Of a DNA stretch of 64,000 nucleotides, positions 48,960-60,946 are shown in pieces. The notes beneath the pieces are model-generated. The model was not told the origin of the DNA. It was given only the letters and a program-made list of their open reading frames with translations, and searched no databases. The DNA comes from an uncultured Candidatus Binatia bacterium. Lineage in GTDB: Bacteria; Desulfobacterota; Binatia; UBA9968; JAJDTQ01. Both the position numbers and the translations under genes were made by a program. The first letter of the stretch is position 1. Each line of letters begins with the position of its first letter. The DNA lies in NCBI GenBank assembly GCA_965242525.1, contig OZ251459.1, positions 1,696,001 through 1,760,000 on the forward strand, in the 5' to 3' direction.

Positions 48960-49068
48960 GGAAACCCTGAACGATTATCCCGTTCGTCCCGAGCGTAGCG
49001 AAGCGAAGTCGAAGGACGCGCTTTCCCACAGGGAGATGGGGTTCGAACCGGAATCGTTCAGGGTTTCC
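48960..49068. mobile_element. MITE-like element D (subfamily II, 1 unit)
   Basis: Inverted termini GGAAACCCTGAACGATT / AATCGTTCAGGGTTTCC; flanks TCAA/TTAA. Confidence 0.78.
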
Positions 49069-49300
49069 TTAACACAATTAACACAAAGCCGCGCCGGTAG
49101 TCCACGGGAAGGAAGGCCGGGGAAACCGGCTGGATTCACGGACCTCCCTATGGTATGAGAACTCGATTTTCGACGGGATCCCCGCTCGTTTCCCCACCGA
49201 AGAAAGGTCCTGCCTCTCGTTCGTCCCGTACGAGGAGAGATCCCGCGGGGAGGCTCGCTCCGGCATCACCGGGGTCCGGCGCAGCCGAGGAGGAACCTCG

Positions 49301-50071
49301 ATGGCAAACGCGAAGAAGAAGCAGCGCGGGTCCAACGCGCGCGAGCTCGGGCGGCTCAGGAAGACCGTGGCCCGGGCCACGCGCATGCTCTTCCACCAGG
49401 GTCTCGCGGATTACCACGGCCACGTGAGCGCCCGGGTCCCGGGCGCCGACAAGCTGCTCATCAAACCGGTGCTGGCGCCCCTGGGATCCATCCGCAGCAA
49501 GGACATCATGGAGGTGGACATCCGGGAGTACAAGGAGAACTGCGAGGCCAACTGGGCCAGGGCCGGCGACCAGAAGGCCGTCATCCAGCTCAAGATCCCG
49601 CCCCGGGAAACCATGATCCATGCGGCCATCTACGAAGCGCGGCCGGACGTGAACGCGGTGGTCCACACCCATCAACCCCTGGCCACGGCGTTCGCCATCG
49701 CCGGCGTCCCCATCCGCCCCATCTACAACCAGGCTGCGGCCTTCGCCCCCGAAACGCCCGTGTTCCACAGCCCCCGGTTGATCTACACCGTCCGGGACGG
49801 CGTCGAGGTGGCGGCCGCGCTGGCCGACCGCATGGCCGTGCTGATGCAGGGACACGGCGTCACCACCGTGGGGGACAGCGTGGAGCAGGCCGCGTGCCAC
49901 GCGGTTTACCTGGAACGAACCGCGTACATGCAGTGGGTGGCCGGCAGCGTGGGCCGGGCCGTGTCCATGCCGGACCGGAACACCGCCATCATGGCGGCGA
50001 CCAACCGCGGGCGGGCGCACCACGCCTTCGCCTACTTCACCGGCCTCATGCCGGAAGAGATGCAGGACTAG
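49301..50071 (+). CDS. Class II aldolase/adducin family protein (possible decarboxylase)
   Basis: GHVSAR, ETMIHAAIYEARPDV, VHTH, LMQGHG. Confidence 0.9.
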   Translation: MANAKKKQRGSNARELGRLRKTVARATRMLFHQGLADYHGHVSARVPGADKLLIKPVLAPLGSIRSKDIMEVDIREYKENCEANWARAGDQKAVIQLKIPPRETMIHAAIYEARPDVNAVVHTHQPLATAFAIAGVPIRPIYNQAAAFAPETPVFHSPRLIYTVRDGVEVAAALADRMAVLMQGHGVTTVGDSVEQAACHAVYLERTAYMQWVAGSVGRAVSMPDRNTAIMAATNRGRAHHAFAYFTGLMPEEMQD

Positions 50072-50104
50072 GGGTCCGTCCCCCGCGAGAACGGAAGGAG
50101 AACC

Positions 50105-51676
50105 ATGGCCGAGCCGAACCGCAGCGCGTCCGGAGCCGCGGGCCGTCCCATCCAGGACATCCGGGAATGGCTCGACCGCGCCGAAGGGATCCAAGAGCTC
50201 ATCCAGATCGAAAAGCCGGTGGACCGGGACGAGGAGATGAGCGCCATCACCTACCTGGTGGCCAAGCAGGACCCGTCGCCGGCGATCCTGTTCGACAACC
50301 CCAGGGGATACGAGGACAGCCCCATCGGCGCCCGGATGCTCTGGAACATCCTGGGTCCCAGCCCGAAACGCATCGCCCTCACCATCGAGGAGCCCCCGGA
50401 GACCCCGACCCTGGAGCTCATCCGCCGGCTCAAGGAGAAGATGAAGGACCGGGTCCCGCCGCGGGAGGTGCCCGCGGCCGAGGCGCCCGTGTACGAGAAC
50501 ACCCTGGCCGAAGACGCCATCGACCTGGAGCAGTTGCCCATCCCCAGGCATTGGCCGCTGGACGGCGGCCGTTACGCGGGCACCGCGGACGCGGTGTTCA
50601 CGCGGGACCCGGACTCCGGCTACCTGAACATCGGCACCTACCGGATGATGCTCCAGGGCAAGCGGGAGGTGGGTCTCTACCTGTCGCCGGGAAAGGACGC
50701 CCGGCTCCACATCACGCGGTGCTGGGAAAAGGGCGAGTCCATCCCGGTGGCCGCGGCGTGGGGCATCGACCCGCTGTTCATGCTGGTGGGCTCCCAGACC
50801 TTTCCCAAGAACGTGTCGGAGTACGAGTTCGCCGGCGGCATCAAGGGAGAGCCCATCCCGGTGGTGCGGGCCCAGACCAGCGACCTGCTGCTGCCGGCCA
50901 ACGCGGAGCTCGTGGTGGAGGGCGTCATCAGGCCCAACTCGGTGAAGACCGAAGGTCCCTTCGGGGAGTTTCCCGGATACTACGGCAGGCCGGAGGCGGG
51001 CTGCCCGCTGGTGGACGTCACCCGGGTGCACTACCGCACCCGCCCGGTGCTGACCAACGCCATCATGGCGGACTATCCCTCCTGCGAGCAGAGCGGCTTC
51101 TTCGCGGTGATCCGGTCGGCGCGCATCTGGGACGACCTGGACAAGCTGGGGATACCCGGGGTCCAGGGCGTGTACGCCCATCCCGCGGGCGCCGGAGGCT
51201 TCGGCATGACCGTCGTCAGCCTGGAGCAGCGCTATGCCGGCCACGCGGCCCAGTGCCTGGCCCTGGCCGCCCAGGTGCCCGGCGGCGCGTACTACACCAA
51301 GTGGATCATCGCGGTGGACGAGGACATCGACCCCACGGACATGGACCAGGTGATCTGGGCCATGAGCAGCCGCTGCAACCCCATCGACGACATCGACGTC
51401 CTGCGCAACACCTGGAGCACCTGGCTGGACCCCACCCAGAACCCGCCGGAGGAACGCCCCTACGGCTCCAAGGCGCTCATCAACGCGTGCAAGGAGCACC
51501 GCTACCTGCCGGTCTTCTCCAAGCGCACCACGCTGCGGCGGGAGATGTACGACCAGGTGGCCCGGCGCTGGAAGGAACTGGGGCTGCGGGGGACCGTCCC
51601 CGAAGTCCGGGCGTTCGAGCAGGAGAAGAAAGTCGTCTATCACGAGCAGGGGGGGTTCGAGCCGGGCAAGAAGTAG
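50105..51676 (+). CDS. UbiD-family decarboxylase
   Basis: DGGRY, NIGTYR, EGPFGEFPGYY, VDEDIDP, LINAC. Confidence 0.93.
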   Translation: MAEPNRSASGAAGRPIQDIREWLDRAEGIQELIQIEKPVDRDEEMSAITYLVAKQDPSPAILFDNPRGYEDSPIGARMLWNILGPSPKRIALTIEEPPETPTLELIRRLKEKMKDRVPPREVPAAEAPVYENTLAEDAIDLEQLPIPRHWPLDGGRYAGTADAVFTRDPDSGYLNIGTYRMMLQGKREVGLYLSPGKDARLHITRCWEKGESIPVAAAWGIDPLFMLVGSQTFPKNVSEYEFAGGIKGEPIPVVRAQTSDLLLPANAELVVEGVIRPNSVKTEGPFGEFPGYYGRPEAGCPLVDVTRVHYRTRPVLTNAIMADYPSCEQSGFFAVIRSARIWDDLDKLGIPGVQGVYAHPAGAGGFGMTVVSLEQRYAGHAAQCLALAAQVPGGAYYTKWIIAVDEDIDPTDMDQVIWAMSSRCNPIDDIDVLRNTWSTWLDPTQNPPEERPYGSKALINACKEHRYLPVFSKRTTLRREMYDQVARRWKELGLRGTVPEVRAFEQEKKVVYHEQGGFEPGKK

Positions 51677-51715
51677 CGCTCGCTCCCCCTTGCCCGGTAC
51701 GATGCCGCAACCGCC

Positions 51716-53460
51716 ATGAGCATGTCCTCGCGCATCCTCTACCAACCCGACGAACGCCCGCCGCAGGTCCTCGCCTTCGGCCTCGGCTGCCAGCAGGCGG
51801 CGCTGTGCATCGCCGCGGTGGTGCTGACCCCGGTCATCGTCATCCGCGCCGCGGACGGAGGCGAACCCTACCTGTCCTGGGCCGTGTTCGCCGCCCTCTC
51901 CATCAGCGGGCTCGCCACCATCCTCCAGGCCGTGCGGGTCGGGAGCGTGGGCGCCGGCTACCCGCTGCTCATGGGGACCTCGGGGACCTTCATCGCGGTC
52001 TGCGTGACCGCGCTGGCGGACGGCGGGCCGGGGATGCTGGCCACGCTGGTGTTCGTCTCGGCGCTCTTCCAGTTCGTGCTCTCGTCGCGGCTCGCCTGGC
52101 TGCGCCGCCTCATCACCCCCACCGTGGCCGGGACGGTGCTCATGCTGATCGCGGTGACCGTCATGCCCATCGTGTTCGACATGCTGAAGGACGTGCCCGA
52201 GGACGCGGCGCCCGCGGCCGCGCCCGTCAGCGCCGCGGTGACGCTGGCGGCCATCGCGGTGCTGGCCTTGCGCGCACCGGGCGCCCTGCGCCTCTGGGCG
52301 CCGGTGGCGGCGCTGGCGCTGGGCTGCGTCACCGCGTCGTTCTTCGGCCTCTACGACACGCGCCTGGTGCTCGAGGCGGACTGGGTGGGCGTCCCCCGGG
52401 GCGGTTGGCCCGGCTTCGACCTGGGCTTCGGACCCACGTTCTGGGCGCTGCTGCCGGCGTTCGTGTTCGCTACACTGGTGGGCGCCATCGAGACCATCGG
52501 CGACTCCATGGCGATCCAGGGGGTCTCCTGGCGCAAGCCCCGGGCCACGGACTTCCGCGAGGTGCAGGGGGCGGTGGCCGCGGACGGCGTCGGGAACCTG
52601 CTCTCCGGCCTCGCCGGCACCGTGCCCAACACCACCTACTCCACGAGCATCGCCATCACCGAGCTCACCGGCATCGCCGCGCGCAGCGTCGGCGTGTGGA
52701 TGGGGGCGGCGTTCGTCGTGGTGGCGTTCCTGCCCAAGGCGGCCGCGCTCCTGCTCGCGGTGCCGGGACCCGTGCCGCGGCCTACCTCACGGCCCTGCTG
52801 GCCATGCTGTTCGTGCTCGGAATGCGCATGGTGGTCCGGGACGACATGGACTACCGCAAGGCGTTCATCGTGGGCGTGTCGTTCTGGATCGGCGTCGGTT
52901 TCCAGAACCAGCTCATCTTTGCCGACCACCTGGGCCCGTGGTGGGGGACGCTGCTCGGCAACGGCATGGCGAGCGGCGGTCTCACCGCGCTCTTCCTCAA
53001 CCTGTTCCTGGAGTTGACCGGACCCCGCCGCTGGCGCATCGAGACCGAACTCGACATCGAGGCCCTGCAAAGGATCGACGGCTTCCTGCGCGAGTTCGCG
53101 GCCGCCCGGGGTTGGCCGGAGGAGGCCTCCGACCGCCTCCGCTCGGCCGGGGAGGAGGCGTTCCTGAGCCTCGTGGACCAGCACCGGCAGGCACGGGAAA
53201 ACGAGCGGCAGGGGAAGCGCCGCCTGTTGACCATGGTGCACGGCGACCGCCGGAGCGCGGAGCTGGAGTTCGTCGCCGCCTCCGGCGACGAGAACCTGGA
53301 GGACGTGATGGTCCTGCTCTCGGAGCAGCCGGGAACCCCGGTGGAGCACGAGATCTCGCTGCGCCTGCTGCGCCATTACGCCTCGTCCGTGCGCCACCAG
53401 CAATACCACGGCACGGACATCGTGACCGTCAACGTCCAGGGCGCGCAAGAGTCCTCCTGA
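51716..53460 (+). pseudogene. NCS2 (xanthine/uracil/ascorbate) permease fused to a degenerate RsbW-like HATPase domain; single-base frameshift near 52774
   Basis: Upstream frame has NCS2 motifs (LITPTVAGTV, ETIGD, ADGVGN, PKAAA); CCC GTG CCG CGG becomes P-V-A-A-A-Y-L with one added G and continues in the frame ending at 53460 (~581 aa); could be a sequencing error. Confidence 0.8.
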
Positions 53461-53619
53461 CCGCCTGCCGGGACGCGCTTCCGGCAGCGCCGGCCTTCGC
53501 GCCGAAAACGCCCGATCGCCCGAAAATCCAAGTTGCCGCATACCCTTGGCCGTGCTATCCTGCGTTCGTCGATGGGCTCCGATTGGCCGCGCCATCAAAC
53601 CGAGGAGAAAGGACGTCCG

Positions 53620-53961
53620 ATGGAAATCCGGGAGGAAAAGACGGGGTCCCTGGTCGTGGTCGCGCTGGAAGGACGCGTGGACGGCCACAGCGGACCGGAG
53701 CTGGAGCAACGGGTCACCGCGATCGTCGAACGCGGCGACGCCCGCGTGCTGCTCGACTGCGAGAAGATGGAGTACATCAGCAGCGCCGGCCTGCGCGTGG
53801 TGCTCGTGGGCGCCAAGAAATGCCAGGCGTCCGGCGGCAAGCTGGCGCTCTGCGCGCTCCAGCCCGCCTGCAAGCAGGTGATGGAGATCAGCGGTTTCCT
53901 GAACATGCTCGACTGCTACGAGACACGCGCCGACGCCTGCGCCGCGGAAGCCGAGGTGTAG
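53620..53961 (+). CDS. STAS-domain anti-sigma factor antagonist (RsbV/SpoIIAA-like)
   Basis: LEGRVD, LLDC..MEYISSAGLR (phospho-Ser), VMEISGF. Confidence 0.93.
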   Translation: MEIREEKTGSLVVVALEGRVDGHSGPELEQRVTAIVERGDARVLLDCEKMEYISSAGLRVVLVGAKKCQASGGKLALCALQPACKQVMEISGFLNMLDCYETRADACAAEAEV

Positions 53962-53963
53962 CC

Positions 53964-54617
53964 ATGCTGACCTTCACCGAAGAGATCATGCTGTTGATGC
54001 TGGACGACGACGGCCTGTTCCTGCCGATCCGCGGCGGCGCGGTGGAGCACATCCTGGCGGGGGCGACGCTGATGGACCTGGCCTTCGCCAACCGCATCGA
54101 CACCGACCCCGAGCAACTCCTGGTCCTCGACCAGACGCCCACCGGCAACCCGATGCTCGACGACACCCTGGAGCGCGTCGCCGGTTCCGGCGAGACCAGG
54201 GACACCCGCGGATGGGTGGACGCGCTGGCCCGGGAGGCGGCGCCCGAAATCCGGCAGCGGGCGCTGGCCAGCCTCATCGACCGCGGCATCCTGGAAGCCC
54301 AGGACGAGAGGTTCCTGTGGGTCTTCCGTTCGCGGCGCTACCCGATGATCGACGGCCGCGTGGAGCGCGAGGCCAAGCTGCGGATCGGGGACGTGCTGCT
54401 GTCCGACGACGTTCCCGACCCCAGGGACGTGGCCATGATCTGCCTGCTGGACGCCTCCGACCTCCTCGGCGACATATTCTCGGAACGGGAGATGGAGCGC
54501 GCCCGGCCCCGGGTGGAGCAACTCCGCAAGATGGACATCATCGGCCGCGAGGTGGGCAGCGTCATCGCCGACATCGAGCACTCCATCACCATGGCCATGG
54601 CGCAAGTGGCGCACTAA
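53964..54617 (+). CDS. GPP34 (GOLPH3/Vps74) family protein
   Basis: LTFTEEIMLL, LAGATLMDL..ANRI, PTGNPMLD, LIDRGIL, FLWVF..RRYP. Confidence 0.85.
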   Translation: MLTFTEEIMLLMLDDDGLFLPIRGGAVEHILAGATLMDLAFANRIDTDPEQLLVLDQTPTGNPMLDDTLERVAGSGETRDTRGWVDALAREAAPEIRQRALASLIDRGILEAQDERFLWVFRSRRYPMIDGRVEREAKLRIGDVLLSDDVPDPRDVAMICLLDASDLLGDIFSEREMERARPRVEQLRKMDIIGREVGSVIADIEHSITMAMAQVAH

Positions 54618-54719
54618 CCGCGGGCCCGCGGAACCGTTGCCGGCCGGGCGCCCGGGCAAGGGGCGGCCCACGCGCCGGCGGCGAACGAACCGGCCGACCG
54701 GCGGCCGCCAAGTCCGCGG

Positions 54720-55571
54720 CTAACCTTCGCGGCCGTCCTCCTCGACTCCCAGCATCCGGCGCACGTCCCCTTCCACTTCGGGGTCCAGTCCCGGGGGCGC
54801 GGTGTCCACCGCGGCCGCCAACCGCTTCACCACCGCCCTCATGGCCGCGAGACGCGCGTACCTCTTGTCGTTGGCGGGAACCGCGACCCAGGGCTGCGGG
54901 ACGGTGGAGGTCTTGCGGAACATGTCCTCGATGGCGGTTTCGTATTCCGACCAGCGGGAGCGGTTGCGCAGGTCTTCCGCGGACAGCTTCCAGCGCTTGA
55001 GGGGGTCGCTCCAACGCTGGCGAAACCGCTCCAACTGCTCTTCCGGAGTGATGTGGAGGAAGATCTTCACGAGACGGATGCCGTCGTCGTCCAGCATGCG
55101 TTCGAACTCGTTGATCTCGGAATAGGCGCGGCTCCACTCGGCCTCCGCGGCGAAGCCTTCCACCCGCTCCACCAGGACCCGGCCGTACCAGGAACGGTCG
55201 AAGACCACCATTTGCCCGGGACGCGGCAGACGCTTCCAGAAACGGTAGAGGTAGTGCTGGCCCTGCTCGTCCGGGGTGGGCGCGGCGATGGGCCAGACCT
55301 TCAGGCCGCGGGGGTCCAGGGGCCAGCTCATGCGCCGTATGACGCCGCCCTTGCCCGCGGCGTCCCAGCCCTCGAACAGGACCACCGAGCGCCGGTGTTG
55401 CGCCCGGTAGGCCAGGGATACTTCCCGCAGGCGCTCCTGGAGCCCGGCGAGCTTGCGCTCGTACTTCTTCCGCCCCACGCGCTTGTCCATGTCCAGGCGG
55501 GACAGGCCCGGCGGCGCGGGCTGTAGCCGGATGGGCGCGCGTTGGCTGAACCACTCCCTGTTCTCTTCCAT
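54720..55571 (-). CDS. ppk2: Polyphosphate kinase 2 family protein
   Basis: FEGWDAAGKGG, FDRSWYGRVLVERVEG, KRWKL. Confidence 0.93.
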   Translation of the reverse strand: MEENREWFSQRAPIRLQPAPPGLSRLDMDKRVGRKKYERKLAGLQERLREVSLAYRAQHRRSVVLFEGWDAAGKGGVIRRMSWPLDPRGLKVWPIAAPTPDEQGQHYLYRFWKRLPRPGQMVVFDRSWYGRVLVERVEGFAAEAEWSRAYSEINEFERMLDDDGIRLVKIFLHITPEEQLERFRQRWSDPLKRWKLSAEDLRNRSRWSEYETAIEDMFRKTSTVPQPWVAVPANDKRYARLAAMRAVVKRLAAAVDTAPPGLDPEVEGDVRRMLGVEEDGREG

Positions 55572-55673
55572 GTGTGCTTCCTGCTCGACGGCGCGGCGGG
55601 TGGAAGACGACCATGGCGCAGGCCGCACGAGCATGAGAGTGGCTGCCGTACGGTTCCAGGGGCGGCCGGGCCG

Positions 55674-57251
55674 TCAGTCGTTGGCCAGCAACCGGCCTCT
55701 GCCCCACTCCTCGTGACGGAAGATGAGCGACTTGATCACCACCGGAACCGCCCTGGCGTCCGGAAGCTCCTGGCCGATATCCACGAAGTCGAAGTCCTTC
55801 AGGTCGATGCCGTCGATGGAGACCACCCCGGCGCCGGGAAGGATCTCCTTGTCGATGATGTTGCCCACCAGCTTGGCGATGTCGGCGTCCAGCACCAGCA
55901 CCAGGGAATGCCCCTGCCGCAGGTGCTCCTTCATGCCCTCCACCACCCCCGCGGCCAGGGTGCGGATGAGCGGGTACGAAGGCCCCAGCTCCCAGTGGAG
56001 CGCCAGCGCCGCGGCCCGGTCGCCTTCCGCCATGTCGAAACGCCGGAGCGCCCCTTCGATGGAGCTCCTCACGTCTTCGACGGACAGGGGCTCGGCTTGG
56101 CGGAAGCGCGGGGTAACCACCTGCAGGTTCCTGAGGGGCAGCAGGGACGGGTCCGACAGGAAAATGGTGTTGCCGCTCACCTGGACCGTGTACTGGGACG
56201 CTCCGATCACCGTGGCCCGGATGCGCACGTCGGGTTCCTCGAACCGCCAGGACTCGCGGGTGGCCAGGTCCAGGGCGCCCGCACGGATCTTGCGCCCCAC
56301 GTGGTTGCCCAGGTCCCCCTTGTCCGCGGTCTCGTATCCGTAGATGTACTCGGAGACCCCGCCGGAGAACTGGACGCGGTGGATGGGGTCCCGGTACGAC
56401 AGCGCGGGGGTCAGCATGAGCTCCTGGGTCAGCGGCGAGAGCGGGCCGCGGTTCAGGACCTCCAGGAGGCAGCCGCTCAACGTGTCGGCCATCCGTTCCT
56501 TCTCGTCCTCCCCCAGCGCCTGGCCCAGCGCCAGCGGCACGCCGCTCGCCCTGCCGATGCGGGCGCCCGCGTCCTCGAGCCGTTCGACCTTCCGGTCGCC
56601 GTCCAGGGCCACCAGCCGCGCCCCCACCTCCAGGGCCGCGGTGTCCACCACCTGTCCGCCCCGGGTGACGGCGATCTTGCTGGTGCCGCCGCCGATGTCC
56701 ACGTTCATGCACGCCACTTGGTCGTCCCGGGCCGACGCCTCCACCGCGCCGGAGCCGAAGGCGGCCAGGATCGCTTCGAGGTTGTGGCCGGCCGTGGCGC
56801 ACACGAACTTGCCCGCCTCCTCCGCGAACAACGCGGCGATGGCCTCGGCGTTCTCCTTCTTGGCCGCCTCCCCGGTGACGATCAAGGCGCCGGTGTCGAT
56901 GTCCTGCCGGGTGAGGCCGGCCCGGGCGTAGGCCTGGCGGATGAAGTCGTCGAGCTTCTCCGTGTCGATGGTGAGCTTGTCCACGTAGGGAGTCAGCAGG
57001 ATCGGCGACTCGTGGACGATCTCCCGCTTCACCACCACGAAACGGCTGGACAGGGAGATCCCCTGCCGGCGGAGGGTCAGCCGGGAGAAGATGAGATGGG
57101 ACGTGGACGAGCCGATGTCGATGCCCACGGAAGCAAGCGAGATGCGCTCGGACTTCCACATGGGATGGTCTTCATCGGGCAGGGGCGCGTGGTCGTGGTC
57201 GTCGTCTCCTTCGTGGCAGATGAGGGGAAGTTGGCTGGGGTCTCCGTCCAT
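55674..57251 (-). CDS. eutA: EutA-like (ethanolamine ammonia-lyase reactivase family) protein
   Basis: SVGIDIGSSTSHLIFS, TGEAAKKENA, FVCATAG, NVDIGGGT, SGGV, IRATVIGA, VPVVIKSL. Confidence 0.85.
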   Translation of the reverse strand: MDGDPSQLPLICHEGDDDHDHAPLPDEDHPMWKSERISLASVGIDIGSSTSHLIFSRLTLRRQGISLSSRFVVVKREIVHESPILLTPYVDKLTIDTEKLDDFIRQAYARAGLTRQDIDTGALIVTGEAAKKENAEAIAALFAEEAGKFVCATAGHNLEAILAAFGSGAVEASARDDQVACMNVDIGGGTSKIAVTRGGQVVDTAALEVGARLVALDGDRKVERLEDAGARIGRASGVPLALGQALGEDEKERMADTLSGCLLEVLNRGPLSPLTQELMLTPALSYRDPIHRVQFSGGVSEYIYGYETADKGDLGNHVGRKIRAGALDLATRESWRFEEPDVRIRATVIGASQYTVQVSGNTIFLSDPSLLPLRNLQVVTPRFRQAEPLSVEDVRSSIEGALRRFDMAEGDRAAALALHWELGPSYPLIRTLAAGVVEGMKEHLRQGHSLVLVLDADIAKLVGNIIDKEILPGAGVVSIDGIDLKDFDFVDIGQELPDARAVPVVIKSLIFRHEEWGRGRLLAND

Positions 57252-57395
57252 CCGGTGGCGTCCTTTCGCGAGTACGAATGAAACCAGCGTCATAACACAA
57301 GCCCCGGCGGGTTGCCATACGCGCCCCGGCCGCGGAGCCCGACGGGATGGCGCCGGGCTTGAGAATCGGGCGAAAAGTCGTAGAATGGGTCCCGC

Positions 57396-60300
57396 ATGGC
57401 GACCCCACCGCACGAACGGGAGTATGGAGAGATACGCGACTTCCTGCGCCGGTTCGTTCGCCGCTTCCGGATGGTCCGGGGCATGGAGGGGTTGTGCCTC
57501 ACCGCGGCCGCGGCGCTGGTGCTCGCGGCTCTCGGCCTCGGGGTGGACGCGGTCAAGGAGCGGCTGCCGTACGCGCCCCTGGCCCTGAGCATCCTCTCCG
57601 GGGCGACGCTGCTGGGGCTGGTCGGCTACACCCTGCTGTGCTTCCTGCGGCCGCACGCGCTGTCGTGGGCGGCCCGTTGCATCGAACGGCAACGACCGGA
57701 GCTGCGCAACAACCTGATCAACTCGTTGCAGCTCTACCCGCAACTCACAGGTCCCGCGGACGCCGCCGGAGCCTCCGCCCCCATGATCCTCGCGCTGGTC
57801 CGGCAGACCCGCGAGCAGGTTCGCGCCATCCGGCTCGCCCACGTGGTGGACTGCCGGCCGTTGAAGGCCAGGGCGCGGCTCCTGGCGCTGGTGGCCGCGC
57901 CGGTCCTCGCCCTGGCCGCGTGGAACCCCGGCTTTCCGGGCCGGACCCTTGCGCTGGTGGCTCATCCGTTGGAGCATCTCCCTCCCGCGGACATCTTCAT
58001 CCACGTGGTGACCCGGGACGTGCGCGTGATTCGCGGGACCTCGGTGGCCGTCGAGGCGGTGACCTCCGGAGCGAAGCCCGGCCGGGTGGTCCTCGCGTTC
58101 CGGCCATCGGCGTCCGGGGACGGAGGCGAAGCCGAGCGGACCGCGGCCATGGAGCGGACCGGGCCGGACCGGTATGCGGCGATGCTGCCCGAGGTAACGG
58201 AAGACCTGGACTACCGGGTGGTCACCGGGCCGTTCGCCTCCCCGTGGTACCGGATCGCGGCAACGGAGCGTCCGGCCGTCACGGACCTCACGGTGACGCT
58301 CTACCCGCCGCACTATACCGGCCTCCCCGACGAGACCCTCGCCGGCGGCAACGTGCGCGGCGTCAAGGGCTCCACCTTGAGCTTCGCCGTCGCCGCCAAC
58401 AAACCCGTGGCCCACGCGGTCCTCGCCCTCGACGACGGACGGGAAGTCCCCCTGAAGCTCACCGGAGACCGCCTCCAGGGCAGCATGGTGCTGTTCCGCT
58501 CGCAGCGGTACCGTATCCGCATGGAGGACCCCTTCGGCTTCGAGAACCTCCCCGCCCCCTACGAGATGCACGCGGTCCCGGACGGCTTTCCCGTGGTGGA
58601 GCTGCTGCGCCCCGCGGAAGACCTGGAAGTGAACGGCGACGAAAGGCTGGTGCTGGAGTACCGGGCGGAGGACGATTACGGGGTCCGGGAGATCGCCCTG
58701 GCGGCCAGGGTCGGCGACCGGGAGGAACGTCTCCCGGTATGGCGCCGGGACCCCGAGCGGACCTTGCAAGACCGTTTCGTCTGGGACCTGGACGCCATGG
58801 GCCTGGACCAGGGCGACGTGGTCACCTACCACCTGGAGATACTCGACAACGACACCATCTCGGGTCCCAAGCTCGGAAGGTCGCGGCCGTTCAGCCTCCG
58901 CCTCAAGGACCTCGAAGTCGAGCACCGGCAGGTCACGGAGATGGTCCGCGGCCTGTCGGACAAGATGCTGGACCTGCTGGCGGACCACCTGGAAAGCGCT
59001 CCGACCGAAGCTCCTCCGGCCGCGGCGGGACCGTCCCCCGAGGACCGGCTGGCCGAGGGGCTCCACCGGATGATGGAGCGCGTGGACGAGGTGATGGCGC
59101 GCACCCGCGACGACCGCATGAGCGACTTCGCCACCTGGTCCGACCTGGAGACCCTGAAGCGCAACCTCGAATACGCCCGCACCGAGTCGCTGGACGAGAT
59201 GCGCCAAGCGTCGTCCGCGGGGGAGCGGGAGCGGGCCCACGACGAGATGGCCACGGACCTGGAGCGCATGTCCATGCTCAGCGAGGACATGAGCCGGCGG
59301 CTCGCGGGACAGAACGCGGCGTCCAACGCCAGGGACATGGTCAAGGGCCAGGAGCGCTTCCTCGATTCGCTGGAAAAGCTCAGGAGCGGCCACAAGGAGC
59401 TGGACGAGGTCCTGGACGAGCTGTCGCGGCTGTCCAGGCAACTCCGGGAGCTCCAGGCGTCGCTCATGCGGTTCGCAAGGGACCTCCCCGGCGAGTTCCT
59501 CAACCCGGAGAGCATGCGGAACATGCCCTTCGCCGACATGCGCTCGGGTATGGACGATATCCGCAGGAAGCTCCGGGAGGGGGACATCCAGGGCGCGTTG
59601 CAGTTGGCGCGGGAACTGTTCAACCAGATGGCGCAGTTGGCGGCCTCCCTCAGGAGCGGCCAGCAGCAGGCCCAGAACTCCATGATGGCGCGGATGCAGG
59701 GAGCCATGAGCCAATCCGGCAACGAACTGCAGCAGATCCTCCGGGAACAGCAGGACATCCTGCTGGGGACCGAGAGCAGCCACGGGGAGAACACGCGGGA
59801 GCTGGAGGAGAGGCGCCGGGAAGCGCTGGAACGGCTGGCGGCGGAGACCCGGGCCAAGCTGGAACCTCTGACCCGTCTCCTCACCGACCGCGAGTTGCAG
59901 GACGCGCAGGGACTGCCCGAGACCGCGGACCGGGACGCCGTGAGCGTCCATCCCCTGTTGGCCGGCCTGCTCTCCATGCTCGCGGACCGGGACTTCGCGG
60001 CCTTCGCCCAACGGTTGGAGCCCGCCCTCGACCAACTCGACCAGCCGCTCACAGAGGACCAGAGGAAGGGGGTGGCGGCCATGGCCGAACTGGCGCGGGA
60101 ATACCGGGACCTGGGCCGGATGGCCGCTCCCGAGATGACCGCGCCCCGGAAGGAGGCGGTCCGGGGCCTCGCCGTCCGGCAGGGGGTCCTCGAGGAACGG
60201 ACCCGGGACTTGGCCGAGAGGCTGCGGCACCTCTTCCAGTTGTTCCCGTCGCTGGACCCGAAGATCGTCAGGGACGTGGCGGAGGCAAGCGGCTTCATGG

Positions 60301-60704
60301 GCCGGGCCGCCCATGAGTTGGGCCGGCTCGCGCCGGGGATGGCCATCCCCCCGGAACAGGAAGCGGTGCGGCGCCTCACGGACTCGGGCCGGCAGATGCA
60401 GGCCGCGATGCAGCGGTTGGCGCAACGGGGACGGCTGGGACGGGTGCCGCTGGTGCGCCTGTTCCGGGACGGCCGCTTCATTCCGTCCGGCCGGTCCGCT
60501 CCCCCGGCCGGGACGCCCCGGTTCCCGGACTTCGACGTGGACGAGAGCCTCGCCGGACTGGACACGGACAAGGTGGAGCTTCCCGGAAAGGACGACTACA
60601 AGCCCGAGAAGTTCCGCAAGGAGATCCTGGAAGCCCTCAAGCAGGGGGCGCCGGACCGGTACAGGGAACAGATCGAGAGCTACTTCAGGGAGCTGTCGCA
60701 ATAG
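57396..60704 (+). CDS. DUF4175-like membrane-anchored coiled-coil protein
   Basis: Three N-terminal TMs, PPHYTG, AEDDYG, DNDTISGPK, long helical tail, C-terminal YFREL. Confidence 0.85.
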   Translation: MATPPHEREYGEIRDFLRRFVRRFRMVRGMEGLCLTAAAALVLAALGLGVDAVKERLPYAPLALSILSGATLLGLVGYTLLCFLRPHALSWAARCIERQRPELRNNLINSLQLYPQLTGPADAAGASAPMILALVRQTREQVRAIRLAHVVDCRPLKARARLLALVAAPVLALAAWNPGFPGRTLALVAHPLEHLPPADIFIHVVTRDVRVIRGTSVAVEAVTSGAKPGRVVLAFRPSASGDGGEAERTAAMERTGPDRYAAMLPEVTEDLDYRVVTGPFASPWYRIAATERPAVTDLTVTLYPPHYTGLPDETLAGGNVRGVKGSTLSFAVAANKPVAHAVLALDDGREVPLKLTGDRLQGSMVLFRSQRYRIRMEDPFGFENLPAPYEMHAVPDGFPVVELLRPAEDLEVNGDERLVLEYRAEDDYGVREIALAARVGDREERLPVWRRDPERTLQDRFVWDLDAMGLDQGDVVTYHLEILDNDTISGPKLGRSRPFSLRLKDLEVEHRQVTEMVRGLSDKMLDLLADHLESAPTEAPPAAAGPSPEDRLAEGLHRMMERVDEVMARTRDDRMSDFATWSDLETLKRNLEYARTESLDEMRQASSAGERERAHDEMATDLERMSMLSEDMSRRLAGQNAASNARDMVKGQERFLDSLEKLRSGHKELDEVLDELSRLSRQLRELQASLMRFARDLPGEFLNPESMRNMPFADMRSGMDDIRRKLREGDIQGALQLARELFNQMAQLAASLRSGQQQAQNSMMARMQGAMSQSGNELQQILREQQDILLGTESSHGENTRELEERRREALERLAAETRAKLEPLTRLLTDRELQDAQGLPETADRDAVSVHPLLAGLLSMLADRDFAAFAQRLEPALDQLDQPLTEDQRKGVAAMAELAREYRDLGRMAAPEMTAPRKEAVRGLAVRQGVLEERTRDLAERLRHLFQLFPSLDPKIVRDVAEASGFMGRAAHELGRLAPGMAIPPEQEAVRRLTDSGRQMQAAMQRLAQRGRLGRVPLVRLFRDGRFIPSGRSAPPAGTPRFPDFDVDESLAGLDTDKVELPGKDDYKPEKFRKEILEALKQGAPDRYREQIESYFRELSQ

Positions 60705-60730
60705 CCCGGGTCCCGAAGCGGCGGCGAGGC

Positions 60731-60946
60731 GGAAAACGTCGGCAGCCTCACGAACGAGCGCGTCCTTCGACTTCGCTTCGCTACGCTCGGGACGAACGGG
60801 GACAAGAGGGCCGCGTGACGGAAGACCGGAAGCCGCCGCGGGCTGGTGGGCACGGTGTTTCACGGACAAGAGGGCCATGTGACGGAAGCCCCTCATGCAC
60901 GGCTCGATCGTCCAGGGTTTCCGTTGGTTGGTGGTTCGGAGTTTCC
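60731..60946. repeat. Degenerate MITE-like shell with a REP family 2 unit and an internal ~25-bp direct repeat
   Basis: Unit at 60761-60799; GGACAAGAGGGCC..GTGACGGAAG at 60800 and 60864; right-end motif ATCGTCCAGGGTTTCC ending at 60922. Confidence 0.65.

Follow-up and report, generated by a model that had tools for sequence, protein, structure and literature searches.

A predicted NCS2-type carrier with a kinase-dead RsbW/UsfX-like tail beside STAS and GPP34 genes in an uncultured Candidatus Binatia bacterium

The DNA analysed here (the window) is a stretch of 64,000 nucleotides (nt) from contig OZ251459.1 of an uncultured Candidatus Binatia bacterium, in which three neighbouring plus-strand genes encode an NCS2 permease with an additional cytoplasmic tail, a STAS protein and a short GPP34/GOLPH3-like protein. 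The permease reading spans 51716-53460, including the stop codon at 53458-53460, and changes frame once. The N-terminal 352 codons and two bases of codon 353 lie in frame 2 (51716-52773), one G of a GG is missing at the gap site 52773-52774, and the reading continues in frame 1 through the last transmembrane (TM) helices (52774-53019, residues 354-435 of a protein of 581 amino acids (aa), with a residual Xan_ur_permease match) into the tail (53020-53460, residues 436-581 and the stop codon). The STAS gene (53620-53961) begins 159 nt past the end of the permease gene, and the ATG of the GPP34 gene (53964-54617) lies 2 nt past the STAS stop. The STAS product (53620-53958) matches PF01740 (9.4e-19, 67.6 bits against a cut-off of 22.6) and TIGR00377, 'anti-sigma factor antagonist' (1e-23, 83.3 bits against 53.45); it is a single-domain protein of the antagonist type with the phosphorylatable-Ser motif ISSAG, and its SSAG site (S54 S55 A56 G57) is invariant in 19/19 aligned orthologues. 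The GPP34 product (53964-54614) matches PF05719 at 4.3e-44 (151.4 bits, cut-off 29.1). These matches and coordinates agree with a preliminary description of the locus, which had reported a STAS protein with an intact SSAG site followed 2 nt on by GPP34.

The tail, a soluble domain of about 145 aa, directly follows the last helix in a full-length model of the orthologue from genome G023, a member of the same genus. Pfam yields only a sub-threshold match of the last ~150 aa to HATPase_c_2 (PF13581; 15.6 bits against 27.4, E 0.017), weak matches to the same domain occur in 13 of 42 family members (best E 2.2e-4), a scan of NCBIfam provides no name for the tail, and its sequence profile finds nothing meaningful among PDB sequences (best E 0.57, RpoD). 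Profile comparison with hhalign aligned the 42 tails to 17 RsbW-like domains of the same order at 91.2% (E 9.8e-7, 117 columns), against 0.2% each for control comparisons with the STAS and GPP34 alignments. An AlphaFold2 model of the tail (pLDDT 80.7, pTM 0.77) has the order strand-helix-helix-strand-strand-helix-loop-strand-strand, and its top Foldseek match is UsfX (E 4.9e-8), with ranks 1-18 of the 19 matches at E <= 1e-3 all occupied by UsfX, RsbW or SpoIIAB. In VIA comparisons the tail aligned with RsbW 6m37_C over 114 of 115 residues (Z 15.2, rmsd 2.1 Å), with Z of 12.8-14.4 for UsfX (14.4), the RsbW domain of Rv1364c and SpoIIAB, 10.8 for SiaB and at most 6.7 for histidine kinases, and an ESM Atlas feature search with the tail led to HATPase_c_2 clusters. 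The tail is accordingly predicted to have the fold of the RsbW/UsfX/SpoIIAB anti-sigma-factor kinases (Bergerat/GHKL). The preliminary description had noted an RsbW/SpoIIAB-like HATPase_c pattern in the tail, with which hhalign, AlphaFold2, Foldseek and VIA concur, and the fold search of the last ~150 aa that it proposed after repair of the frame recovered the GHKL/anti-sigma-kinase fold.

Residues of the ATP site were surveyed in 176 tails from 168 loci, numbered along a 151-aa query (53005-53457). The position of the N-box Asn is occupied by T or S, with Asn in 0/176 tails; at the Asp position of G1 (DxG) the four commonest residues are Ala, Ser, Gly and Thr, Asp is again found in 0/176, and the aligned G1 positions read A-A; the G2 glycines are replaced by E-x-S-L-R. 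At the same time E50, E51, N97 and H131 are invariant, and S118, R120, Q132, Y134, H135 and D138 nearly so. The ATP site is thus gone, with a new conserved polar surface in its place, and the erosion of ATP-binding residues seen in the preliminary description extends to all 176 family tails. Although the ATP site is dead, the tail is under selection, since its ratio of nonsynonymous to synonymous substitution rates (dN/dS) against G023 is 0.24. The RsbW and SpoIIAB proteins of Bacillus (PDB 6m37, 1tid, 1l0o), which provide the best structural match and the same order of strands and helices, differ in their activity as Ser kinases: they possess the N, G1 and G2 boxes, each of which is replaced in the window tail. 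Closer in this respect are UsfX of Mycobacterium tuberculosis and RsbW1 of M. smegmatis (PDB 8ih8, 8jzt; PMC7693655), kinase-negative anti-sigma-F factors that share the fold and, according to the excerpts of that source, still bind STAS antagonists; no kinase activity is expected of the tail either. As soluble proteins, however, they stand free and hold a sigma factor, whereas the window domain is fused to a carrier, falls below the Pfam threshold and has different invariant residues. By analogy with them, the dead anti-sigma-kinase tail may dock a STAS protein and in this way control the carrier, a reading to which we give somewhat less than an even chance. A further possibility, towards which we lean less, is that the tail serves its own carrier as a self-contained domain for regulation or dimerisation, which works independently of free STAS proteins and binds a small ligand, a metal or a face of the carrier. 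The polar and His-rich set of E50, E51, N97, H131, Q132, Y134, H135 and D138 could form such a ligand or metal site, but the closest structural relatives of the tail are exactly the STAS-binding proteins.

The carrier part matches Xan_ur_permease (PF00860) over 51716-52780 (E 6.2e-46, 157.3 bits against a cut-off of 27), and the intact orthologue matches NF037981 (NCS2_1) with 48.5 against a cut-off of 40. Carriers of the NAT type are marked by the signature [Q/E/P]-N-x-G-x-x-x-x-T-[R/K/G] in TM10. When aligned to UapA (PDB 5i6c and variants), the window carrier has QQ instead of QH in TM1 and STSIA at the NAT signature position, where crystallised UapA has AENNG; it reads T-S-I-A-I-T-E-L-T-G where UapA has E/Q-N-N-G, while the TM8 motif E..GD is retained. 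Across the family, the TM1 Gln is kept in 85/85 members, the TM8 residues E and D occur in 70/88 and 77/88, and a conserved motif of the family's own, TTYS[TS]S[VI][SA]xTELTG (88 loci), replaces the NAT signature. The altered substrate motifs pointed out in the preliminary description are therefore real and family-wide, and by its sequence the carrier is a distinct NCS2/SLC23-type subfamily under selection, not one in decay. It shares with UapA, UraA and SVCT1 (PDB 5i6c, 3qe7, 8jew) the Pfam family, the overall helices and the TM8 Glu and Asp, but departs from them in the replaced Q/E-N-x-G signature and the loss of the TM1 His. The full-length model of the G023 orthologue (pLDDT 86.5, pTM 0.81) has helices in the expected succession as far as residue 435, and the gene product is predicted to be a 14-helix NCS2/SLC23-type carrier with the 7+7 fold. 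To our knowledge, no described NCS2/NAT member bears such a tail. NCS2 and SLC26 carriers share a fold. In SLC26/SulP proteins, as covered in excerpts of a STAS review (PMC8256260), a carrier of 7+7 inverted repeats likewise ends in a cytoplasmic domain from the partner-switching toolkit; there, however, the fused domain is STAS itself, whereas in the window family it has the fold of the STAS-binding kinase and the STAS protein is separate, adjoining in a minority of loci. The fused STAS of SLC26/SulP, or the dimer contacts of RsbW-type proteins, would be comparable to a tail acting within its own carrier, and the whole-protein pTM of 0.81 suggests a fixed tail-carrier arrangement that would suit such a role.

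Alignment to the intact 581-aa G023 orthologue (95% identity in the N-terminal part, 91% in the tail) shows that a single base is missing from the window after 52773. Logan contigs of 4/4 public runs, drawn from three studies of sponge metagenomes or coded organisms, have a G inserted behind 52773 at full depth, and two of the four contigs have no other difference from the window over 730 bases; the best-matching run may be the genome's own source sample, so that this comparison is a check on the assembly and not independent biology. The frameshift, which the preliminary description had set aside for repair, is thus probably not biological: we regard it as very likely an assembly error in an intact gene. 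The alternative, a fresh pseudogene in which the 1-nt deletion is real in this genome, is improbable. The gap is present in the assembled sequence, and in the closely related G002 most of this gene has genuinely disappeared, so that loss is under way in the clade; against this stand not only the extra G in the contigs of all four runs, including the two otherwise identical to the window, but also the length of 581 aa in 13/14 members of the orthologue's 90% cluster and the course of the reading past the gap, where dN/dS against G023 is 0.22 (0.16 upstream) and no further stop occurs.

Upstream of the permease lie genes for a class II aldolase (49301-50071, plus strand; Pfam Aldolase_II 9.6e-38) and a UbiD-family decarboxylase (50105-51676, plus strand; Pfam UbiD, UbiD_C and UbiD_N), the latter ending 39 nt before the permease start, and a convergent polyphosphate kinase 2 gene (54720-55634, minus strand; Pfam PPK2 1.1e-83) marks the end of the unit. 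A promoter and terminator scan of 49000-55000 gave no signal above shuffled sequences. In the genus, GPP34 is present in 23/24 other genomes (0/16 outside the genus), and all 23 have a STAS gene ~40-50 nt upstream of it. The STAS-GPP34 pair stands behind orthologues of the aldolase and of UbiD (91-93% identical) in 12/12 genus loci fetched, with UbiD directly preceding STAS in 10 of them; in G003 an extra 364-aa open reading frame (ORF) lies between, and in G002 a permease remnant. This remnant (L136 6276-6550, minus strand), a 99-aa open frame between UbiD and STAS, joins codons 1-41 of the carrier to its last 50 codons. The permease is absent from the aldolase-UbiD-STAS-GPP34 locus in 11/12 cases, G002 being the remnant case, and the claim of the preliminary description that the three genes form a conserved module is not borne out here. 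Because the pair occurs with aldolase and UbiD but without the permease in 11/12 loci, the resident block is aldolase-UbiD-STAS-GPP34, into which the carrier, whose nearest relatives in a tree of carriers are gammaproteobacterial, was inserted in the small clade of G000 (the window genome), G023 and G002 within this sponge-symbiont genus of Binatia, to be lost later in G002. Such a clade-specific insertion into a conserved block would accord with a tail that serves the carrier alone, with the STAS and GPP34 neighbours of the window an accident of the insertion place.

Several further observations concern the surroundings of these genes. A perfect 44-nt inverted pair (window positions 48979-49022 and 60757-60800) brackets 49022-60757 and was considered as the boundary of a mobile unit; this was ruled out, as the sequence is one of 463 dispersed, intergenic copies (243 forward, 220 reverse, at most 3 mismatches) in a genome of 4.2 Mb, where a reversed control has 0 copies, and the repeat looks like a repetitive extragenic palindromic (REP) or miniature inverted-repeat transposable element (MITE). 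A distance of 38-62 kb, constant across about nine genomes of the genus, separates one copy of the carrier from a particular STAS gene, which is conserved synteny and not adjacency. GPP34 has been described as a sponge-symbiosis marker (Microbiome 2025;13:4, PMC11706023), and the window protein resembles the short GPP34 form of a sponge-associated bacterium in excerpts of that paper, the main text of which contains no mention of STAS, anti-sigma or permease neighbours. The window genome has another, more divergent GPP34 copy (C1:3252250-3252855) within a long open frame, with matches in open frames of ~680 aa in relatives; it may correspond to the long GPP34-P450 form that has been published. 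Many GPP34 relatives at 50-62% identity (P0168-P0287) are ~391-393 aa long, and P0168, P0175, P0204 and P0170 have, behind the GPP34 domain, a hydrophobic C-terminal part without a Pfam name that resembles about four membrane helices; judged by these sequences, GPP34 would be membrane-anchored in the organisms concerned. Of 214 longer GPP34 relatives, the best 120 include no STAS-GPP34 fusion.

Beyond this locus, the fusion of carrier and tail constitutes a large unnamed family, found mostly in sponge-associated metagenome-assembled genomes (MAGs) of many phyla. A phmmer search with the last 151 aa against 1.84 billion representatives retrieved 560 proteins at E <= 1e-3 and 283 at 1e-10, and 32 of the 150 proteins listed are 542-650 aa long with the match at the extreme C-terminus. 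At least 487 stretches of a species-level genome collection encode a member, and the best 79 loci belong to MAGs labelled Binatia, Gamma- and Alphaproteobacteria, Acidobacteriota, Latescibacterota, Nitrospinota, Gemmatimonadota and Nitrospirales, many of them from sponge or coral studies as judged by isolate names. The intact full-length homologues on which the preliminary description had made its proposal depend therefore exist in large numbers. Within the genus, the carrier is present in 22/24 other genomes in one to three copies each, whereas in the other genera of the order a match was found in 1/16 genomes, and that match is a remnant. A tail-only match in G025 (L017 5527-5970, minus strand) was rejected as a free-standing gene, being a remnant without the permease part in a stretch without clear genes.

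Neighbouring genes were tabulated, as the preliminary description had proposed, for 158 other loci with flanks of 4-6 kb, by means of hidden Markov models (HMMs) of STAS, GPP34 and RsbW built from the alignments of this study. Stop-to-stop ORFs of family loci were clustered as well, and cluster 2 (29 loci) was discarded as an alternative frame of the permease. The flanks contain STAS matches in 9 loci, GPP34 in 7 and RsbW-like proteins in 8, and 16 loci have STAS or an RsbW-like protein. STAS and GPP34 lie directly downstream in 7/158 (L020, L054, L065, L056, L061, L154 and L157), in both gene orders and on contigs of Binatia, Alphaproteobacteria and Thermoanaerobaculia type, and an RsbW gene is found 2.7-3.5 kb away in six loci of another clade. 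Mapped onto a tree of 89 carriers, STAS-GPP34 adjacency requires three changes, and starred branches force at least two separate origins. A hand estimate from ~1-2 partner-switching genes per Mb and ~1.3 Mb of flanks gives a chance expectation of ~1.5-3, against 19 observed hits in about six lineages, and the enrichment of partner-switching neighbours is real but modest. The other recurrent neighbours are ordinary genes of diverse metabolic kinds, with PhyH at 10 loci, SDR at 8 and amidohydrolase at 7, and tandem carrier copies occur in 12/158 loci. Two arrangements are of interest in themselves. On the metagenome contig L196 (2552-8051), a live, convergent RsbW gene is overlapped at its end by the gene of a tailed carrier, and genes for STAS, an RR-SpoIIE phosphatase and a Peripla_BP_6 protein come next. 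In alphaproteobacterial L054 (1499-11789), and also in L065, two tandem tail carriers are accompanied by STAS, GPP34, an ammonium transporter, a second STAS and a type III glutamine synthetase, by sequence a nitrogen-assimilation context.

The co-occurrence with STAS genes that the preliminary description had anticipated across the family therefore holds in part, as adjacency to STAS or RsbW genes recurs in about six lineages (16/158 loci) but no STAS match lies within the flanks in 149/158, a count to be read with the narrow STAS set behind the HMM, which makes presence a lower bound. This scarcity weighs against docking of a STAS protein, as do several features of the genus: the STAS-GPP34 pair occurs without the carrier in the locus in 21/23 other genomes, among them G010, which has the pair with no carrier found, and in G002 the carrier is reduced to 41 + 50 codons beside an intact STAS-GPP34 pair, which shows that the pair does not need the carrier. 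In addition, the carrier lies much nearer to UbiD than to STAS (39 nt against 159 nt) and may belong to a catabolic operon, and the chance estimate is rough and the lineages few. A self-contained tail would agree with the 142/158 loci in which neither STAS nor RsbW is found and with the varied metabolic neighbours, but not readily with an adjacency to partner-switching genes that recurs across about six lineages in either gene order. STAS docking stays plausible because this adjacency recurs above the rough chance estimate.

If STAS docking is correct, a mechanism can be outlined from known partner switching. In M. smegmatis, excerpts of PMC7693655 describe a kinase-negative, UsfX-like RsbW1 that binds the STAS protein RsfB, which is phosphorylated by RsbW2, and the top Foldseek structure of the tail, 8ih8, is by its title a UsfX-RsfB complex. 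The window genome has one RsbW, one SpoIIE phosphatase and three STAS genes; the live RsbW (C1:2963683-2964045), SpoIIE and a STAS gene of their own lie together at C1:2962125-2964045, ~1.2 Mb from the locus, and the locus itself has neither a live kinase nor a phosphatase gene. The dead kinase tail would thus serve, like UsfX and RsbW1, as a docking site for the unphosphorylated STAS protein, the phosphorylation state of which would be set in trans by the single live RsbW and the single SpoIIE phosphatase. Docking would switch transport on or off or, alternatively, the state of the carrier would release or hold the STAS protein. The switch would have a further client in GPP34, the partner that is conserved downstream of STAS. 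That the phospho-switch of RsbW, SpoIIE and STAS acts directly on the carrier and in parallel on the membrane-associated GPP34, with nutrient uptake in sponge symbionts switched post-translationally and not via a sigma factor, is a more demanding claim, and we consider it rather unlikely. Much less probable still is a carrier acting as a membrane-tethered anti-sigma factor, the dead RsbW domain of which would hold a sigma factor, release it on substrate transport and so control transcription as a transceptor. Its attraction is that RsbW, SpoIIAB and UsfX, which have the fold of the tail, are binders of sigma factors (PDB titles 1l0o and 8jzt) and that kinase-negative anti-sigma factors exist (PMC7693655); yet the tail and RsbW do not share their conserved surface residues, and no sigma-factor gene turned up among the recurrent neighbour clusters by Pfam, in a survey that included no dedicated sigma-factor search.

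Literature searches on NCS2 with anti-sigma, on partner switching with transporters and on the two Pfam names together found no description of this design, as the preliminary description had also stated. The excerpts of the STAS review (PMC8256260) contain neither 'permease' nor 'pseudokinase', and their 'transporter' passages concern SLC26/SulP with fused STAS. A STAS-like switch protein with a target other than a sigma factor is found in the SiaABCD system of Pseudomonas aeruginosa (excerpts of PMC8457831; SiaB-SiaC, 6kko), which differs in that its target is a diguanylate cyclase and its kinase SiaB is active and free-standing. The window calls for caution, as its local gene order goes back to a recent insertion and its frameshift most likely to an error of assembly. 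Through its tight pairing with STAS, bacterial GPP34 acquires a signalling context, on which the main text of the 2025 GPP34 paper is silent. If STAS docking holds true, an unnamed family, comprising 560 cluster representatives and no fewer than 487 matching stretches of the genome collection, would gain a function, and these carriers would mirror those of SLC26, which bear the STAS half of the same pair. Partner switching would then extend from sigma factors and a few enzymes to the direct control of transport.

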